Below are positions 1 through 5,001 of a stretch of 5,001 nucleotides of DNA, one piece after another (position 1 is the stretch's first letter; each line of letters opens with the position of its first letter). The stretch is from the IMG/VR virus record IMGVR_UViG_3300045988_000140, positions 1 through 5,001 of that record; one strand, 5' to 3'. The position numbers and the translations under genes were made by a program. Source of the stretch: a virus. The notes beneath the pieces were generated by a model. That model was not told the origin of the DNA and did no database searches. It saw only the letters and a list, made by a program, of their open reading frames with translations.

Positions 1-55
1 GATGCTGAGTAGAACGATTAACAGAAGACATGTACTTATCCAATAGCTATAGATA
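1..55. repeat. Terminal redundancy from circular wrap: 1..55 is identical to 4947..5001, giving a 4946-nt unit genome
   Basis: Direct base-by-base comparison: gatgctgagtagaacgattaacagaagacatgtacttatccaatagctatagata occurs at both ends. Bases 1..31 duplicate the first codons of VP1 on the - strand (ATG at 31..29 corresponds to 4977..4975). Confidence 0.95.
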
Positions 56-102
56 ACAAAAAAGGCGGCTAAGTCCGAAAGCCCTCTCGACCTAACCGCC
101 TT
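55..102 (-). terminator. Rho-independent-terminator-like hairpin with U-tract, about 26 nt upstream of the VP1 start
   Basis: Coding strand reads AAGGCGGUUAGGUC-GAGAGGGCUUUCG-GACUUAGCCGCCUU followed by UUUUGUU. Bases 62..68 pair perfectly with 96..102 (aaggcgg/ccgcctt). As RNA the stem extends to 14 bp with two G.U pairs (69..75 with 89..95). The A-run 58..63 on + gives 6 U on the coding strand. Confidence 0.5.
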
Positions 103-150
103 ACGGCTCTAAAACCAAGACTTAAAAAGCTTTATCACCGTAGGGCAAAG

Positions 151-178
151 CATATACCACAAGTCAAAGAGAAAGCAA
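151..178 (-). promoter_or_regulatory. Weak candidate sigma70-type promoter with an extended -10
   Basis: Coding strand reads TTGCTT (178..173), a 16-nt spacer ending in TGG, then TATATG (156..151), i.e. TGnTATATG. Judged by eye only and the host is unknown. It sits upstream of the 55..102 hairpin and VP1. Confidence 0.2.
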
Positions 179-190
179 ACATTCGAGCAG

Positions 191-277
191 TGCGTTGGGT
201 ACCCGCACGTGCATCGGGGTGTCACCGGAACCAGTTACATCAAGTAAGTAACTGGTTCCGGTGTGTACCCGTACGCA
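191..277. other. Compound stem-loop: perfect 16-bp inverted repeat with a 9-nt loop, flanked by 11-nt direct repeats; candidate origin or ssDNA structural element
   Basis: Arm 223..238 caccggaaccagttac is the exact reverse complement of 248..263 gtaactggttccggtg, with loop 239..247. Outer pairings are 197..202 gggtac with 265..270 gtaccc, and 191..195 tgcgt with 273..277 acgca. Direct repeat gtacccgcacg (199..209) matches gtacccgtacg (265..275) at 10 of 11 positions. Confidence 0.8.
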
Positions 278-293
278 AATCGTTGAGATATCT

Positions 294-331
294 AAAAAAA
301 GAACCATCTTACCAAGGTGGGTAAAATGGTT
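294..331 (-). terminator. Rho-independent-terminator-like hairpin with a U7 tract downstream of VP3
   Basis: Coding strand reads AACCAUUUUACC-CACCUU-GGUAAGAUGGUU, then C, then UUUUUUU. Bases 302..313 pair with 320..331 (11 bp with one mismatch at 308/325). The A7 run at 294..300 on + gives U7 on the coding strand. The position after the last gene of the coding block is appropriate for a terminator. Confidence 0.55.
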
Positions 332-334
332 TTG

Positions 335-356
335 GAGGGATGATAAATCATCCCTC
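335..356. other. Stem-loop immediately downstream of the VP3 stop
   Basis: gagggatgat (335..344) is the exact reverse complement of atcatccctc (347..356), which is effectively a 9-bp stem with a 4-nt loop. No U-tract follows on the coding strand. Confidence 0.6.
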
Positions 357-373
357 ATAGAGGTTATTAGTAA

Positions 374-823
374 TTACCCGTTGTTGTCAGAAGCAGACGG
401 TTTAACCTCGGTCGACGGAGCGGGCTGAGGTTCTTTAGAAGACTCAGGAGACTTAACTTCTTCAGAAGCGACAAAGCCAAGATCTTCAAGCTTACTCCTC
501 TGTTCAGGATCATTGAGCGCCTGAAGGAACTCAGATGGAGAATTATTGAAAGAGGCACGAATGCGGGACGGAAGGCTTTCAAAGTATTCAGTTGCACGAG
601 CAATAGCATTCTGAGCAGTCTGAAAATCTGTGACGTCAGAAAAGTCACCAAACTGAATTGGACGCTTCGGCGTAAAAGGATCAGTCAAAAAACCGGTCTC
701 AGCATACTTCTGAAGAATATTGTCGATCATGGTCTCATCTTTAAAGTGCTGTTGAGTCATCGACGGTTCAGTAAAGACAATGCCTTCGGCAGTAGCGTTT
801 GTGTGATTAATTTTGAACTTCAT
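374..823 (-). CDS. VP3: Internal scaffolding protein VP3 (149 aa from ATG 823)
   Basis: The ORF track gives 374..859. The 859 start is TTG with no correctly spaced SD. ATG at 823 has GGAG (832..829) 5 nt upstream. The sequence SMTQQHFKDE...IDNILQKY..TG....P.QFGDF..V.DF..A.N...A...F..LP..IR..F.N.P.EFL matches my recollection of gokushovirus VP3 scaffold proteins. The acidic/Ser/Pro-rich C-terminal tail fits that family. Stop is TAA at 374..376. Confidence 0.85.
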   Translation of the reverse strand: MKFKINHTNATAEGIVFTEPSMTQQHFKDETMIDNILQKYAETGFLTDPFTPKRPIQFGDFSDVTDFQTAQNAIARATEYFESLPSRIRASFNNSPSEFLQALNDPEQRSKLEDLGFVASEEVKSPESSKEPQPAPSTEVKPSASDNNG

Positions 824-835
824 ATAAGCTCCATA

Positions 836-864
836 CAAAAAAGTCCTCGCACTGCGCAAGGACT
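836..864 (-). terminator. Terminator- or attenuator-like hairpin with T-run between VP5 and VP3
   Basis: Coding strand reads AGUCCUUGCG-CAG-UGCGAGGACU (864..842). That gives 8 Watson-Crick pairs and 2 G.U pairs around a 3-nt loop, followed by UUUUUG (841..836). It lies directly upstream of the VP3 SD. Confidence 0.4.
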
Positions 865-885
865 GATTAGAAGAATCTCCGTATT

Positions 886-931
886 GCGGCCGCGTCTGTA
901 CTTAGACTTCGGCCTTAGCAGGCGCGGCCGC
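886..931. repeat. Two GCGGCCGC octamers (886..893 and 924..931) bracketing the VP5 stop codon
   Basis: Read directly from the sequence. gcggccgcg (886..894) is the reverse complement of cgcggccgc (923..931), giving a potential 9-bp all-G/C stem with a 28-nt loop that contains the VP5 TAA (902..904). Confidence 0.7.
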
Positions 932-1192
932 TTTGGAGTCCTCAATCGTAGAAACAAAAGCAGTCGCGGCAGCAATCTGTGTCGGGGCAGAGGCTACAAG
1001 CTCTCCAGTCTCATCAGAGTACTGACCAATCTCATAAAGAAAGAAATCGTCGGGATGCTGACCAACGGTAGTGCGACTATCACGAACGAGATCAGAAAAA
1101 GACCGAGATGCATCAGCTGCAGAACGGCTGAAGAACGGCGTATTAAAAACCTGAAGTTTAGAGTCGAAAACGGAAAAAACCTTAAGGATCAT
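902..1192 (-). CDS. VP5: VP5-like small non-structural protein (96 aa)
   Basis: The N-terminus MILKVFSVFDSKLQVFNTPFF.RS...A.RSF.D matches my recollection of gokushovirus or chlamydiaphage VP5/ORF5 proteins. The ATG overlaps the VP4 stop as ATGA (1189..1192), which suggests translational coupling. Its position between VP4 and VP3 is canonical. Confidence 0.8.
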   Translation of the reverse strand: MILKVFSVFDSKLQVFNTPFFSRSAADASRSFSDLVRDSRTTVGQHPDDFFLYEIGQYSDETGELVASAPTQIAAATAFVSTIEDSKAAAPAKAEV

Positions 1193-2106
1193 GATTGATT
1201 CTCTTCCATAACGCGTCTGAGTTTAGCGGCTTTCAGTTCTTGGACGCGTTCACGAACTGAGAGACGTTGCGGCGAAGCTTCGCCAGTATCTTCAAAATCG
1301 CGACCTCGCTTTTCGCGAAGACGCTTAATCTCTTCATAACGAACAATATCAGAACGCTCCAACAACTTATCAAAATAAGCTGGAGGATTCATCATAATCT
1401 TCTCGCTAAGAATAAGTCGATCATTAGTATAAATATCAGTCATGTACTTTTCACAAAAGTCATGACCAATGCCAGGTTTCAAAGAGCAATGACAAAATTC
1501 AGCAACCTTACCATCGTAATGCTCAAGCTTCAAAGGACCTGTAATTTTCTTCGTAACATAACGAGCGACATAAGCGGCAGTCTCAAAGTTGACTGAACCA
1601 ATCGAACTAAAACCATACGGCCAAAGTTTCTCAAGCGTACGGCTACGATATAAGTTATTGCCTCGACGAATCGACCAGAGCTGTTTATCTACAAAAGTAA
1701 CGCCAAAAATTATGGCGTGATAGTGAGGACGACCAAGCTTATCGCCATACTCACCACACATGAAAAAGCGAAGCTGTTGACCAAAACGGCTCATGAAGTA
1801 TTTACGCATGCGCTTCATGAACAGCTGAAAATGCTCGTAATGAAGTGAGCCATCTTCAGGCAAGTGAGCATCGTCATAAGTCAACGTAAGAAACATGTTG
1901 TTCTTATGTGACTTAGCTTCAACAACACATCGAGCGGCCCATTCACGAGACTTAGAAAGACGACAACCAATGCATTGACCGCAAGGAATCTTAAACTCAG
2001 AAAACGGAATAGCCTTCGAAGGATCAAAGGTTACAGCGTTGCGAGTACCGTCTTTAGTCTTAGATCCGGCGAGTCGATAAGCCGTTATCGGGTGAAAGCA
2101 AGGCAT
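1189..2106 (-). CDS. VP4: Replication initiation protein VP4 (HUH rolling-circle endonuclease, 305 aa)
   Basis: Motif 1 is FLTLTY (aa 72-77). The HUH motif PHYHAIIF has HYH at aa 128-130, and nt 1725..1717 read CAC TAT CAC. The catalytic Tyr motif is AAYVARYVTKK (aa 177-187). A Cys cluster PCGQCIGC lies near the N-terminus. The stop overlaps the VP5 start. Confidence 0.93.
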   Translation of the reverse strand: MPCFHPITAYRLAGSKTKDGTRNAVTFDPSKAIPFSEFKIPCGQCIGCRLSKSREWAARCVVEAKSHKNNMFLTLTYDDAHLPEDGSLHYEHFQLFMKRMRKYFMSRFGQQLRFFMCGEYGDKLGRPHYHAIIFGVTFVDKQLWSIRRGNNLYRSRTLEKLWPYGFSSIGSVNFETAAYVARYVTKKITGPLKLEHYDGKVAEFCHCSLKPGIGHDFCEKYMTDIYTNDRLILSEKIMMNPPAYFDKLLERSDIVRYEEIKRLREKRGRDFEDTGEASPQRLSVRERVQELKAAKLRRVMEENQS

Positions 2107-2315
2107 TTTTCAAGACACGTAATATGAAGCTCACGAAGAATCGTCTCACGAGAAGAGCGAAAACGAACCTGAAATGAACAAAGAGCGACCCAAGGGCGAT
2201 CGCGATAAAGCGTCCAGGTCACCAACTTGCGACGACCAACATAGCTTTCTTCGCCAGGGATAAGCCAGCAGACGCCAAAGTCTTTAAGAGTCAAACGAAA
2301 AGCCGCAGTAGCCAT
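2085..2315 (-). CDS. Hypothetical protein, 76 aa, overlapping the VP4 start by 22 nt in another frame
   Basis: ATG start at 2315. By hand count 38 of 76 codons end in T with strong CGT/CTT/GCT usage, resembling the neighbouring genes. The ORF fills otherwise unassigned space between the J-like gene and VP4. I recognise no motif. The only SD-like sequence is a weak GGAA 8 nt upstream. Confidence 0.5.
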   Translation of the reverse strand: MATAAFRLTLKDFGVCWLIPGEESYVGRRKLVTWTLYRDRPWVALCSFQVRFRSSRETILRELHITCLEKCLAFTR

Positions 2316-2390
2316 AGCGCAGTTCCAAATGAAATTGAGATGTTCAAAATGATAACTATGACAACCGCGGCAGGTAACCAGGGTTAACGC

Positions 2391-2513
2391 TTAAATGCGG
2401 AAACCGCCGCGCATAGGCGTAGCACGAGTATTCAAAGTCTTCGTACGTGATGCACCTTTACGGAAAATACGCTTAGATACCTTACGAGAAAGCTTATGAC
2501 GACGACGAGACAT
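2391..2513 (-). CDS. Small basic DNA-binding/packaging protein (40 aa), analogous to phiX174 J and chlamydiaphage ORF8
   Basis: Hand translation gives MSRRRHKLSRKVSKRIFRKGASRTKTLNTRATPMRGGFRI*. Fifteen of 40 residues are K/R and there is no D/E. The C-terminal PMRGGFR(I/L) and internal RLF/RIF-RKGA pattern match my recollection of gokushovirus ORF8-type proteins. GAGG (2522..2519) lies 5 nt upstream of the ATG. It is too short for the supplied ORF track. Confidence 0.8.
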   Translation of the reverse strand: MSRRRHKLSRKVSKRIFRKGASRTKTLNTRATPMRGGFRI

Positions 2514-2520
2514 ATAAACC

Positions 2521-2619
2521 TCACTTTTTAAAAAGTTTCTTAACAGCCTTAAAGGCCTCCCAAATAGCTGAACCAGAGTTCAGCAAAACATTAACGAACT
2601 TTAAGATCGTATCTATCAT
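2521..2619 (-). CDS. Candidate micro-ORF, 32 aa, cationic amphipathic peptide
   Basis: Hand translation gives MIDTILKFVNVLLNSGSAIWEAFKAVKKLFKK*. The ATG overlaps the VP2 stop as ATGA (2616..2619). Its TGA (2523..2521) lies inside the GTGAGG SD of the J-like gene, so the ORF fills the VP2-J gap exactly. It has no SD of its own and I recognise no homolog. Confidence 0.4.
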   Translation of the reverse strand: MIDTILKFVNVLLNSGSAIWEAFKAVKKLFKK

Positions 2620-3239
2620 TTCGCAAGATGAGCGGCACCAACAGCGGAATTTGTAAGCGGCGCAGTCGAATTAAAAGGATTAATCAAATTCATCCACTGT
2701 CCAAACTTCCAAGCGCTAGAGTGCTCTTTCATATAATCAAAAGCTAACTTCTGCTTCTCAGAAGCAATAGCAGAATTCTGAGTCATGAATTTCGCTTGCT
2801 TCAAATTCTCTTCTTGAATCTTATTAGCAATCTCTTGACCTTTCGTTTGAGACCACATCAAATTTGAAGAAGAATCAGCAGCAACAGACTGAGCGCGTTT
2901 CAAACCAGCATCTGCTTGAAGAGCCGAATTCTGAACGTAAGTCTGTTTTTCCAAAGCATCTTTCAAATTCTTCTCAGAGTGCTGAGTTGACGTTTCAGCA
3001 CCAGACTTGAAAGCGCCAGCTAAATCAGGAGCGACGATCGGAGGCGCGTTGCCAGGAGTGCCAGAACCGCCAGTGGCAGACAGAATAGGATTAAGGCCAG
3101 CTTTACGCATATCAGCAACTTCCCACTGATGCCTATTCTGCATCGCTTCTTTCTGATGCTTCCAACCAAAATAAGCTGATAAGGCGGAACTACCTAAATT
3201 AGCGACTCCGCCAATTGCTTCTGCCCAAGGGAATCCCAT
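2616..3239 (-). CDS. VP2: Minor capsid / DNA pilot protein VP2 (207 aa)
   Basis: The N-terminal Gly/Ala/Ser-rich segment followed by Q.RH.WEVADMRKAGLNPIL matches my recollection of the conserved motif of microvirus pilot (H/VP2) proteins. The remainder is rich in Q/A/K/E, and by eye looks suited to a coiled coil. AGGA lies 7 nt upstream of the ATG. The position directly after VP1 is canonical. Confidence 0.85.
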   Translation of the reverse strand: MGFPWAEAIGGVANLGSSALSAYFGWKHQKEAMQNRHQWEVADMRKAGLNPILSATGGSGTPGNAPPIVAPDLAGAFKSGAETSTQHSEKNLKDALEKQTYVQNSALQADAGLKRAQSVAADSSSNLMWSQTKGQEIANKIQEENLKQAKFMTQNSAIASEKQKLAFDYMKEHSSAWKFGQWMNLINPFNSTAPLTNSAVGAAHLAK

Positions 3240-3240
3240 A

Positions 3241-3303
3241 TCACTGTCCTAAAGCAAAGATAACAACAGTGCCAACAACGGCAAGCCAAATAACTAAAGC
3301 CAT
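3241..3303 (-). CDS. Candidate micro-ORF, 20 aa, single hydrophobic (transmembrane-like) helix
   Basis: Hand translation gives MALVIWLAVVGTVVIFALGQ*. A consensus SD AAGGAG overlaps the VP1 stop (TAAGGAGTTGTTATG, 5-nt spacing). This SD is too far upstream (over 60 nt) to serve VP2. The TGA stop lies 1 nt before the VP2 ATG (TGAtATG). Confidence 0.5.
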   Translation of the reverse strand: MALVIWLAVVGTVVIFALGQ

Positions 3304-3312
3304 AACAACTCC

Positions 3313-4977
3313 TTAGAAGTGATCAACCAAGCCAGGCACTGAATACACAGGTATCGGACGAGCACACTTCAAACGAATATACGAGTCAAACAAAAACTGT
3401 GGCTCATCCTGAACGGCGATTACACGCTCGACTGGCGGATTATCTTCAATGAATTGCGACGAAAGCGTTGGCAAAGAGCTGAACTTCTGCGATAAATGCC
3501 AGCTGTCAAGCGGCTGCGGATCGGTCGACCGGAACTTGCCAGTGATCTGGCCAGGGTAATAGCGATACTCTGCATAACGCTCTTGATAGCCAAAGACCTT
3601 ATCGTCATCAGCAGTGCCTTGAGCATAGATCTCCTTATTGAGAACAGCTTGTTCGCCAAGATGCGCCAACACAGGCCAATAGAAGTCAAAACGACCTTGA
3701 CGAGACCACATGCGGTTCAAACCTTGCTGGTAAGTCAGGTCAGCGCGGACATTCACAAAACCAAAAACATAGCCATGCTCAACAAAGGACTTAGAGAATC
3801 CATGGAAGGAATCTGAACAAACACCATATGCCGCAAGATTACCCTGAGGAGTCGTTTCATTCGTAGCTGAAGTCTGCTGGACAGGATTGATCGAAATGCG
3901 AGCAGATGAACCACCAAGGTACTCAGGACGTTGGAGACGCGCATCAGGCGAGATTACGCCAAAGTGCGAACGCAAGATCTCTGTGTAGCGCGTACCACCG
4001 CGAGCATCACGTTCATAGAGCTTTTGAATCTGGAAAGCTTGGCGAAGATCGTTGATCGAAATCGGAGTAGCACTAGACAAATCAGCGAACATATTGTCAT
4101 GTAAAACTAGACCACGACCAGCATAAAAAGAAATTCTACCTGGATCCGAAGGGTTATCTGCAGTAAGTGTCACAGGAAAGGATTTAATAACATTACTCCA
4201 AGGCTGATCCTTCGCACCTAAAGTGACAGGATCAGTGTAATTAACAGGATAAGCTCTAGACCAATTGGAAACAGAATAAATACCGTTATCAACATGATAC
4301 GAACCGAACTGAGCTGCCAAAGTGATATCGCCATAAACATTCGCACGGCCACCAAGCGAAATCTCCACGCCAGGTCCCTTTTGCGGCCACGGCAAACATG
4401 ACGTGAAATAGTCATGACGCTTGCCACGACGAACTAAGCTGTAGTCAGACAAATTGTCAGGACCATCGTCGGTTGGAACCTTCAAAGATTCTTGAAGATT
4501 CTCATCTCTAAACCATTCATTAAAAATAAGGTTATAAGCGCGGAAGGGAAGCGCATTAACCTTAAGCGCTTCATTCACATTGGTCGGAAGACCGAAATAG
4601 TCCCACAAGGTCTGATTCTGAACATTCGTGCCGGAAACCGTAGGAATCAAAAAGTCTGTAGAGTCAGTCGGATTTTTCTGCTCACCATTGAACTTCTGCC
4701 AGTTGTCCCAAACAAGACGATTGGGAACAAAAAAGAAAAAAGTCTCCAGATAAAGATTGTCCATAAAAGGAACAATCGGCGTAGCCAAACGAGCAAACAA
4801 AGTAGCAGTCAGCTTAAAGCTATCACCGGGAAGAACTTCGTCGACGTAAAAAGGTACAAGAAAACCGGAGTCAAAAGTTGTCTTATATCCATGAGAACGG
4901 TCAAAGACCGATCGAGGAATCTGAGTCGAAGGAATCTGAGAGAACAGATGCTGAGTAGAACGATTAACAGAAGACAT
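3313..4977 (-). CDS. VP1: Major capsid protein VP1 (554 aa from ATG 4977)
   Basis: The N-terminus ...FSQIPSTQIPRSVFDRSHGYKTTFDSGFLVPFYVDEVLPGDSF matches my recollection of Gokushovirinae VP1. So do the internal CLPWPQKG and INDLRQAFQIQKLYERDARGGTRYTEILRSHFGV motifs and the C-terminal PIPVYSVPGLVDHF*. The track start at 4989 is TTG. ATG at 4977 (MSSVNRST...) is preferred. Confidence 0.95.
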   Translation of the reverse strand: MSSVNRSTQHLFSQIPSTQIPRSVFDRSHGYKTTFDSGFLVPFYVDEVLPGDSFKLTATLFARLATPIVPFMDNLYLETFFFFVPNRLVWDNWQKFNGEQKNPTDSTDFLIPTVSGTNVQNQTLWDYFGLPTNVNEALKVNALPFRAYNLIFNEWFRDENLQESLKVPTDDGPDNLSDYSLVRRGKRHDYFTSCLPWPQKGPGVEISLGGRANVYGDITLAAQFGSYHVDNGIYSVSNWSRAYPVNYTDPVTLGAKDQPWSNVIKSFPVTLTADNPSDPGRISFYAGRGLVLHDNMFADLSSATPISINDLRQAFQIQKLYERDARGGTRYTEILRSHFGVISPDARLQRPEYLGGSSARISINPVQQTSATNETTPQGNLAAYGVCSDSFHGFSKSFVEHGYVFGFVNVRADLTYQQGLNRMWSRQGRFDFYWPVLAHLGEQAVLNKEIYAQGTADDDKVFGYQERYAEYRYYPGQITGKFRSTDPQPLDSWHLSQKFSSLPTLSSQFIEDNPPVERVIAVQDEPQFLFDSYIRLKCARPIPVYSVPGLVDHF

Positions 4978-5001
4978 GTACTTATCCAATAGCTATAGAT
5001 A

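Follow-up and report, generated by a model that had tools for sequence, protein, structure and literature searches.

We analyzed a 5,001-nt stretch of viral DNA (IMG/VR record IMGVR_UViG_3300045988_000140, positions 1 to 5,001), which is referred to below as the window. Since bases 1–55 recur at 4947–5001, making the start of VP1 visible at both ends, the window represents one complete circular gokushovirus genome of 4,946 nt; its nearest relatives are human-associated gokushoviruses (86–91% identity). All recognizable genes (VP1, VP2, VP4, VP5, and VP3) lie on the − strand, and the gap directly after the scaffold gene VP3 contains a hairpin that an earlier note, made from the letters of the window alone, had put forward as a candidate replication origin with a nick motif for VP4 in its loop. 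Our comparative analysis of sequences supports that proposal: most probably, the gokushovirus viral-strand rolling-circle origin, nicked by the replication initiator VP4, is represented in this phage by the hairpin. The strongest evidence for an origin is that strand composition flips with the orientation of the element. Neither the element nor a mapped gokushovirus origin was described in the full-text literature that we searched, whose reach did not extend to the original accounts of SpV4, Chp1, Chp2, and phiMH2K; the gokushovirus resurrection paper, the Roux 2012 and Labonte 2013 surveys, and the phiCA82 paper likewise contain no description of them.

The hairpin is a perfect 16-bp inverted repeat, as the earlier note had stated: its arms, 223–238 (CACCGGAACCAGTTAC) and 248–263 (GTAACTGGTTCCGGTG), are 100% complementary and enclose a 9-nt loop, where about 2e-5 such perfect repeats would be expected by chance in 5 kb (our own arithmetic). 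As the genes are all on the − strand, the loop (239..247) is to be read on that strand, where its sequence is TTACTTGAT. On the same viral strand the 5′ arm, defined by the inverted repeat and by covariation, occupies 248..263 and reads CACCGGAACCAGTTAC; the 3′ arm occupies 223..238 and reads GTAACTGGTTCCGGTG, its first nine bases (GTAACTGGT) being part of the conserved sequence. When folded as single-stranded DNA (ssDNA), a 55-nt element reached −20.9 kcal/mol (z = −7.95 against shuffles), and folding of the region 150–300, a check that the earlier note had proposed, gave a z of about −6 on either strand. The heptamer ACTTGAT was found inside the coding-strand loop at 245..239, also as claimed. 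It occurs once in the window against an expectation of 0.95, so that the 7-mer alone is not significant and the caution that the match could be coincidental was sound; the loop motif owes its significance to its conservation.

To describe this conservation, we used a covariance model (R1) made from 101 distinct elements (alignment A2), with E < 1e-3 as the threshold for a match. R1 scored 61.6 bits (E = 7e-17) on the − strand of the window, compared with 15.9 bits on the + strand, and this sole strong match delimits a complete origin-like element (stem, loop, and 3′ TGACACC box) at 216..264 on the − strand. Across the Gokushovirinae the element is ~49 nt long and combines compensatory stem changes with a near-invariant loop, the pattern for which the earlier note had recommended looking. 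Its consensus begins with a variable 5′ arm ending in CAGT(T), followed by 3–6 variable bases, TACTTGATGTAA, CTG with the complement of the 5′ arm, and finally (G/C/T)TGACACC. The conserved loop reads (T)ACTTG(A/T)TGTAA, and CTTG.T within it is invariant in A2. Parts of GTAA and CTG are likewise invariant or reach at least 90% conservation, also in elements whose opposite arm is unable to pair with GTAAC. As the conservation of GTAAC does not depend on its ability to pair, GTAAC appears to be read as sequence and not as structure; the inner GTTAC/GTAAC pairs in the 16-bp stem of the window are not a general feature of the elements.

By contrast with the loop, the stem is variable in sequence and conserved in pairing. 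Among the 101 elements, paired cells made up 75%, compared with 30–36% in slid controls; the covariation score was 0.311, compared with 0.05–0.09 after sliding, and none of 500 shuffles reached the observed paired fraction or score. Stem columns 7–12 of A2, which pair with columns 37–42, showed 10–47 double changes per pair, and the rare variants of CTG (ATG, TTG, and TAG) were compensated in the 5′ arm. Nearly all core pairs are Watson–Crick and very few are G.T, which is more in keeping with a hairpin or cruciform in DNA than with a structure in RNA; a count of G.T and A.C mismatches, made to test which strand folds, revealed no asymmetry.

The predicted nick is 18 nt 5′ of the TGACACC box, which is at 218..224 of the window (− strand), at the 3′ foot of the stem. 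The box, the conserved partner of the loop at +18, had been missed by the earlier note. Within it, T41 and G42 do not vary in A2, and conservation at A43, C44, and C46 is at least 90%. The G of the box is at +18 or +19 from CTTG in all full-length elements, a constancy that is partly circular, because R1 penalizes indels. Variants found by hand provide an independent check: the spacing is kept in loci L168, L172, L185, L195, and L196, in Chp2 (where the box reads GAT), and in SpV4, with stems of 9–19 bp and unrelated stem sequences. The exceptions are phiMH2K, which has TCAC at the position of the box, and L182, which has no box.

The element is found in most gokushoviruses. When the 380-nt intergenic region was compared by sensitive BLAST with 50,697 phage records, six close relatives matched over the full length, while ~28 otherwise unrelated Microviridae matched bases 218–263 only, mostly in unannotated DNA. 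The 15-mer TACTTGATGTAACTG was present in at least 120 IMG/VR contigs, and ~100 of those listed were 4–6 kb long and carried VP1 and VP4. To lower ascertainment bias, we also drew 80 loci by VP1 similarity alone. R1 matched 59 of the 80, and a separate search for a hairpin with CTTG[AT]T in its loop added six loci (L168, L172, L182, L185, L195, and L196), which, except for L182, all have the TGAC box. At least six of the loci without the element are partial contigs, one of them from a close relative (L128) whose contig does not include this stretch. Among cultured isolates, phiMH2K (25.9 bits), SpV4, and Chp2 have the element, and folding places CTTG(A/T)T in the loop of each. Genomes with the element carry one copy, located directly after VP3 in 136 of 144 mapped genomes, either in the VP3–VP4 gap (97) or in the VP3–VP1 gap (39). 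The hosts span Bdellovibrio, Spiroplasma, Chlamydia, and E. coli, together with a Veillonella-binned contig. Contig ends, considered as a possible sign of a physical nick, were dropped, as their excess within 150 nt of the element (nine seen, 6.0 expected) was not significant.

We compared the element with the origin of phiX174 (Bullavirinae). In NC_001422, this origin reads CCCCCAACTTGATATTAATAACACTATAGACCAC, i.e., CAACTTG|ATATTAATAACACTATAGACCAC, as in the earlier note, and the annotated rep_origin, at 4306 within gene A, is the A that follows CTTG. The nick at 4305/4306 is spanned by the same CTTG|AT core. When the ~30 nt of the phiX174 and gokushovirus sequences are placed colinearly at the nick, they align without gaps and have in common ACTTGAT, three more loop positions, and GAC at +18 to +20; by our own count, phiX174 agrees at 14 of the 22 conserved gokushovirus positions. 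In the window, ACTTGAT supplies seven of the ten bases of the phiX174 nick site CAACTTG|ATA, and the TGACACC box, like the phiX174 GAC, would represent a second recognition segment at a fixed distance 3′ of the nick. By analogy, the nick is predicted between G241 and A240 on the − strand (CTTG|AT), with lower confidence than we attach to the function of the element.

The presumed enzyme is likewise related to that of phiX174. VP4 (1189–2106, − strand) encodes a rolling-circle replication initiator of the HUH class, which matches Pfam PF23343 (REP_ORF2-G2P, 89 bits) and, weakly, PF05840 (Phage_GPA). BLASTP aligned it with phiX174 protein A over the HUH region (E = 8e-8; GRPHYHAIIF in VP4 and GRLHFHAVHF in protein A), and the tyrosine motifs are near-identical, Y179VARY183VTKK in VP4 and Y343VAKY347VNKK in protein A, i.e., YVA(K/R)YVxKK. 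Thus, the genome encodes in cis a protein-A-class initiator with an HUH motif and the two tyrosines of YxxxY. The two systems also differ. The gokushovirus element is non-coding and follows VP3, whereas the phiX174 site is inside the Rep gene; its nick core is in the loop of a covarying hairpin of 8–19 bp; the AT-rich spacer of phiX174 is replaced by the 3′ stem arm; and about half of the 30 positions differ. The in-gene site without a need for a hairpin, as found in Bullavirinae, is thus not what gokushoviruses have, and this location is a feature of the Bullavirinae arrangement, not of the mechanism. The earlier note had said that the hairpin is not the phiX174 arrangement, which is correct for location and folding, but the linear sequence proved closer to phiX174 than had been thought.

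We then asked how element orientation relates to strand composition, as measured by the A/T skew at fourfold-degenerate third positions of VP1 and VP4 in 179 distinct genomes. The whole element, including the box, is opposite to the genes in ~7% of genomes, and these are spread over several lineages. In genomes with the element in the same orientation as the genes (n = 145), the median skew was −0.55, T being far above A; the coding strand of the window contains 22.5% A and 32.7% T. By contrast, the median was +0.66 in the ten inverted genomes (L003, MH992184, with the element at 2999–3047; L023, L042, L076, L083, L095, L100, L123, L186, and L066; Mann–Whitney p = 2.4e-6), which include the five highest values of all. 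The coding strands of nine of the ten contain 27–43% A and 14–21% T, the reverse of ordinary microviruses. This contrast holds between relatives: seven inverted genomes differed from their five nearest same-orientation neighbors by +1.15 to +1.40, whereas the same contrast calculated for 132 same-orientation genomes had a standard deviation of 0.25 and a maximum of 0.77.

Only ~50 nt are inverted, and the flanking genes keep their orientation. Relative to the VP3 stop, the inverted segment begins between −6 and +14 nt in eight of the ten genomes, and a coding-strand terminator-like hairpin comes after it in at least four. We found no second, forward copy in the inverted genomes; a weak second match in L042 was rejected, as it consisted only of a CTGACACCAA box without a hairpin. 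A flip of ~50 nt that accompanies a genome-wide reversal of bias is what would be predicted of a determinant of the nick site or of strand choice; neither a priming site nor a terminator or promoter could have this effect. In phiX174, the packaged and nicked strand is also T-rich (31.3% T, 24.0% A, A/T skew −0.78), and in 128 of 155 genomes the strand that bears the motif is the T-rich one, irrespective of gene direction. Composition therefore places the site, by this indirect test, on the displaced and packaged strand, with two strong exceptions that are described below. Going a step further, we are slightly inclined to think that the ~50-nt element alone sets which strand is displaced and packaged, that it has been flipped several times, and that the inverted lineages package the antisense strand; on that reading, their coding strands would have drifted A-rich and T-poor (T 14–21%) as a consequence. 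If so, Apis mellifera associated microvirus 13 and 14 and the contigs of L023, L076, L095, L042, L083, L100, and L186 would be negative-sense.

The orientation data bear on an alternative in which the hairpin is a complementary-strand (single-strand) origin, where the host primes synthesis on the packaged strand, as at the n′ site of phiX174, the G4 oriC, or plasmid single-strand origins. The element is indeed a stable, non-coding hairpin on the presumed packaged strand, and its conserved CTG resembles the start triplet of E. coli primase. In addition, hairpins of other small microviruses have tentatively been interpreted in this way: in the reekeekee- and roodoodoo-microviruses, hairpins between genes near Rep show compensatory changes in the stem and a conserved loop, and the authors leaned toward a role in negative-strand priming and reported no phiX-like nick motif (PMC9865509). 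These belong to other clades, and we liken them to the gokushovirus element by description only. Priming, however, cannot choose the displaced strand, yet inversion of the element accompanies the genome-wide A/T flip in several lineages. Furthermore, the loop is conserved across very different hosts whose priming systems differ, and the conserved core of this element of only ~49 nt equals a Rep nick site. We therefore consider a priming site unlikely.

A strand-specific packaging signal, or a docking site for VP4/VP5 on ssDNA, distinct from the nick site, is favored by the coupling of orientation to strand bias and by the coupling of packaging to replication in Microviridae; the true origin would then be elsewhere, for example inside VP4 as in phiX174, and Chp1, which has CTTGAT inside ORF4 and no intergenic element, could be taken as an instance. 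But a signal could not work if its strand were never displaced, so that the separate origin would also have to invert, and the inverted genomes have neither a second element nor inverted flanking genes. The CTTG|AT core and the box at +18 also match the layout of the nick and binding sequences of phiX174. This possibility seems to us no more probable than a priming site.

Several observations weigh against the reading as a VP4-nicked viral-strand origin. One genome with an inverted element, L066 (510–559), has a T-rich coding strand (−0.65), and one with a same-strand element, L064 (2080–2127), has an A-rich coding strand (+0.69); both contain a single element, and it is possible that they represent recent flips. 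Some same-orientation clades have mildly A-rich coding strands. The G/C skew at fourfold sites did not flip with orientation (p = 0.25), which indicates that the A/T bias is not simply due to cytosine deamination. The ACTTGAT heptamer is not invariant, since any of the four bases (A/T/C/G) can precede C and T can replace the A that follows G. Outside the heptamer, phiX174 agrees at only 7 of 15 positions by our own count, a modest number, and this part of the sequence agreement, including a homology of the box, is therefore no more than suggestive. Finally, no convincing element was found in Chp1, and none was found in ~10% of apparently complete genomes. The sole coding-strand CTTGAT of Chp1 (L322, NC_001741) is at ~3220–3260 inside ORF4, the Rep gene, a location reminiscent of the phiX174 arrangement.

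The origin function suggests the following mechanism, in which VP4 as the enzyme, the exact position of the nick, and cruciform extrusion are the parts that we infer. In the supercoiled double-stranded replicative form, the inverted repeat would be extruded as a cruciform, and in displaced ssDNA it would fold as a hairpin; in either case the loop (T)ACTTG|ATGTAA would be single-stranded. VP4, an HUH endonuclease with the motif YVARY, would bind both the loop and the TGACACC box, cleave CTTG|AT between G and A, and remain on the 5′ end. The 3′-OH would then prime the host polymerase, and after one round the second tyrosine would cut the regenerated site, sealing the displaced circle, which is the strand to be packaged. 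Most likely, then, the element combines a phiX174-like nick and binding sequence with presentation in a hairpin loop.

In such a presentation the element resembles the stem-loop origins of circular Rep-encoding ssDNA (CRESS-DNA) viruses (geminiviruses, circoviruses, and nanoviruses), where an HUH Rep acts on a nick motif in an intergenic hairpin loop, and it probably works like them, by exposing the loop from a cruciform or hairpin. The loop nonanucleotide of CRESS-DNA viruses is NANTATTAC, to which the gokushovirus loop TACTTGATGTAA is unrelated, and nothing like NANTATTAC occurs in (T)ACTTG(A/T)TGTAA. Whereas a CRESS-type Rep has one tyrosine and a superfamily 3 (SF3) helicase, VP4 (305 aa) has two tyrosines and no helicase domain detectable by Pfam. 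The earlier note had also likened the surroundings of the hairpin to iterons, and this analogy found no support. Two 11-nt direct repeats are indeed present at 199..209 (GTACCCGCACG) and 265..275 (GTACCCGTACG) on the + strand and are identical at 10 of 11 positions, with a core, CGGGTAC, that is kept in nine close relatives, where the whole intergenic region is conserved. They do not belong to the conserved element, however: the flanks in other clades are unrelated and contain nothing comparable to these repeats and no conserved iterons. Similarly, the outer segments 191–202 and 265–277, described as complementary, do pair, but imperfectly (GGGTAC/GTACCC plus TGCGT/ACGCA with a bulge) and without compensatory change in close relatives. 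Both are features of the window's clade and are not shown to be iterons.

Two plasmid systems offer further comparisons. The origin of pC194 is nicked after CTTG. It contains CTTGATA, so that double-strand origins of the pC194/pUB110 family and the gokushovirus element have in common a CTTGAT(A) core (PMC7072734). These plasmids differ in having Rep_1-family initiators, other flanks, and no TGACACC box. In pT181, the site nicked by RepC is in the loop of an inverted repeat (the IR-II cruciform) that is extruded from supercoiled DNA, which resembles the element, whereas RepC falls outside the HUH class and there is no relationship in sequence. The sites at which pT181 is bound and nicked are separate (PMC5714925).

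The location between genes, often upstream of VP4, could also suggest a transcriptional element, such as a terminator, an RNA stability hairpin, or a promoter or operator, as some copies contain TTGACA and xTGACA is like a −35 box. Against a terminator, there is no T-run after the 3′ arm, where the sequence is ACACCCCG (ACACCCCGATG), and a terminator scan omits the element and instead lists a separate canonical hairpin ahead of it. This intrinsic-terminator-like hairpin, after VP3 and upstream of the element (294..331, − strand), has a 12-bp stem and a 6-nt loop (331–302) followed by CTTTTTTT with a run of seven T (T7). In relatives, a different GC-rich hairpin stands at the same spot, again followed by a T-run, so this looks like a structure kept without sequence conservation. 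The −35 reading of xTGACA was ruled out by the variable first base of the box (G/C/T) and by orientation: the element occurs in either orientation to the genes, and strand composition follows it. The near absence of G.T pairs and the covariation of the arms, which does not preserve a protein-binding palindrome, also count against a transcriptional role, to which we give very little chance.

On the viral strand of the window, the VP3 stop (374) is followed by a small hairpin (356–335), the terminator-like hairpin with its T7 run (331–294), the element (264–216), ~110 nt of clade-conserved sequence, a hairpin with a T-run (102–56), and the start of VP1. As the terminator-like hairpins at 294–331 and 56–102 (− strand) bracket it, the element may be outside the main transcripts.

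A substrate for recombination, either folded ssDNA or a dif-like XerCD site used in lysogeny as in CTX phage, was considered as well. Nothing in the element seems to us to resemble the E. coli dif consensus. Some gokushoviruses do integrate at dif, and their prophages are flanked by 28-bp dif motifs (PMC7062461). We found a canonical copy of the element (68 bits) in 7 of 5,426 complete E. coli genomes, within gokushovirus (enterogokushovirus) prophages. In an integrated E. coli prophage, the undivided element stands between VP3 and VP1, with the outermost phage genes ~1.6 kb and 2.6 kb away, and thus it is not the attachment site there; it is also present in lytic isolates. An orphan copy beside an integrase island, described below, would favor recombination, which we nevertheless regard as having scarcely any probability. 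In E. coli strain C5 (L323, 4376–8662 of NZ_CP010122), the prophage adjoins hipBA and fim genes and is annotated with a rolling-circle replication protein, a major capsid protein, and otherwise hypothetical proteins.

A scan of 596 Gb of bacterial genomes for the 15-mer gave 120 listed loci, 117 of which have neither the TGAC box nor VP genes, as expected for a 15-mer in 596 Gb; among the matches listed, only L260 and L268 contain a real element. In L268 (704–752, − strand), from a 424-kb contig of an alphaproteobacterial metagenome-assembled genome (JAWKVV010000002.1), the element is canonical (49.6 bits) and orphan: no microvirus genes were found in the 8 kb around it, of which only ~700 nt are covered on one side. 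Open reading frames resembling an AlpA-type regulator and a tyrosine integrase lie ~1 kb away. This copy may be left over from a prophage or may belong to a satellite-like island that makes use of a gokushovirus origin.

In gut, marine, and soil viromes, gokushoviruses rank among the most abundant ssDNA phages. For their genomes, the 49-nt element and its covariance model would mark completeness, a natural zero coordinate, and the packaged strand. The element links the linear, in-gene origin of phiX174 with the hairpin-loop origins of other HUH replicons, which suggests that one origin architecture can be converted into the other. Microviruses that package the antisense strand, if they exist as proposed, would revise the positive-sense property given for the family in textbooks, and strand polarity would then be relevant to strand-specific methods of virome library preparation. 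Since the same element is in the culturable E. coli gokushovirus system (PMC7062461), the claim can be tested directly. The element could also be used in gokushovirus-based production of ssDNA or in phagemid tools.

The remaining genes of the window, all on the − strand, are VP1 (3313–4989, Pfam Phage_F), VP2 (2616–3239, without a Pfam match), VP5 (902–1192, Phage_ORF5), and VP3 (374–859, Chlamy_scaf, 114 bits). We found no tRNA or tmRNA. An Rfam scan of bases 1–500 returned only a sub-threshold match to mir-582 (23 bits, compared with a gathering score of 84), which we took as a chance match to a hairpin. In many IMG/VR loci (for example, L036, L040, L052, and L032), a short GC-rich hairpin, often with the loop GAATAG or GAATGA, stands just 5′ of the element and may represent the VP3 terminator or a second conserved structure.

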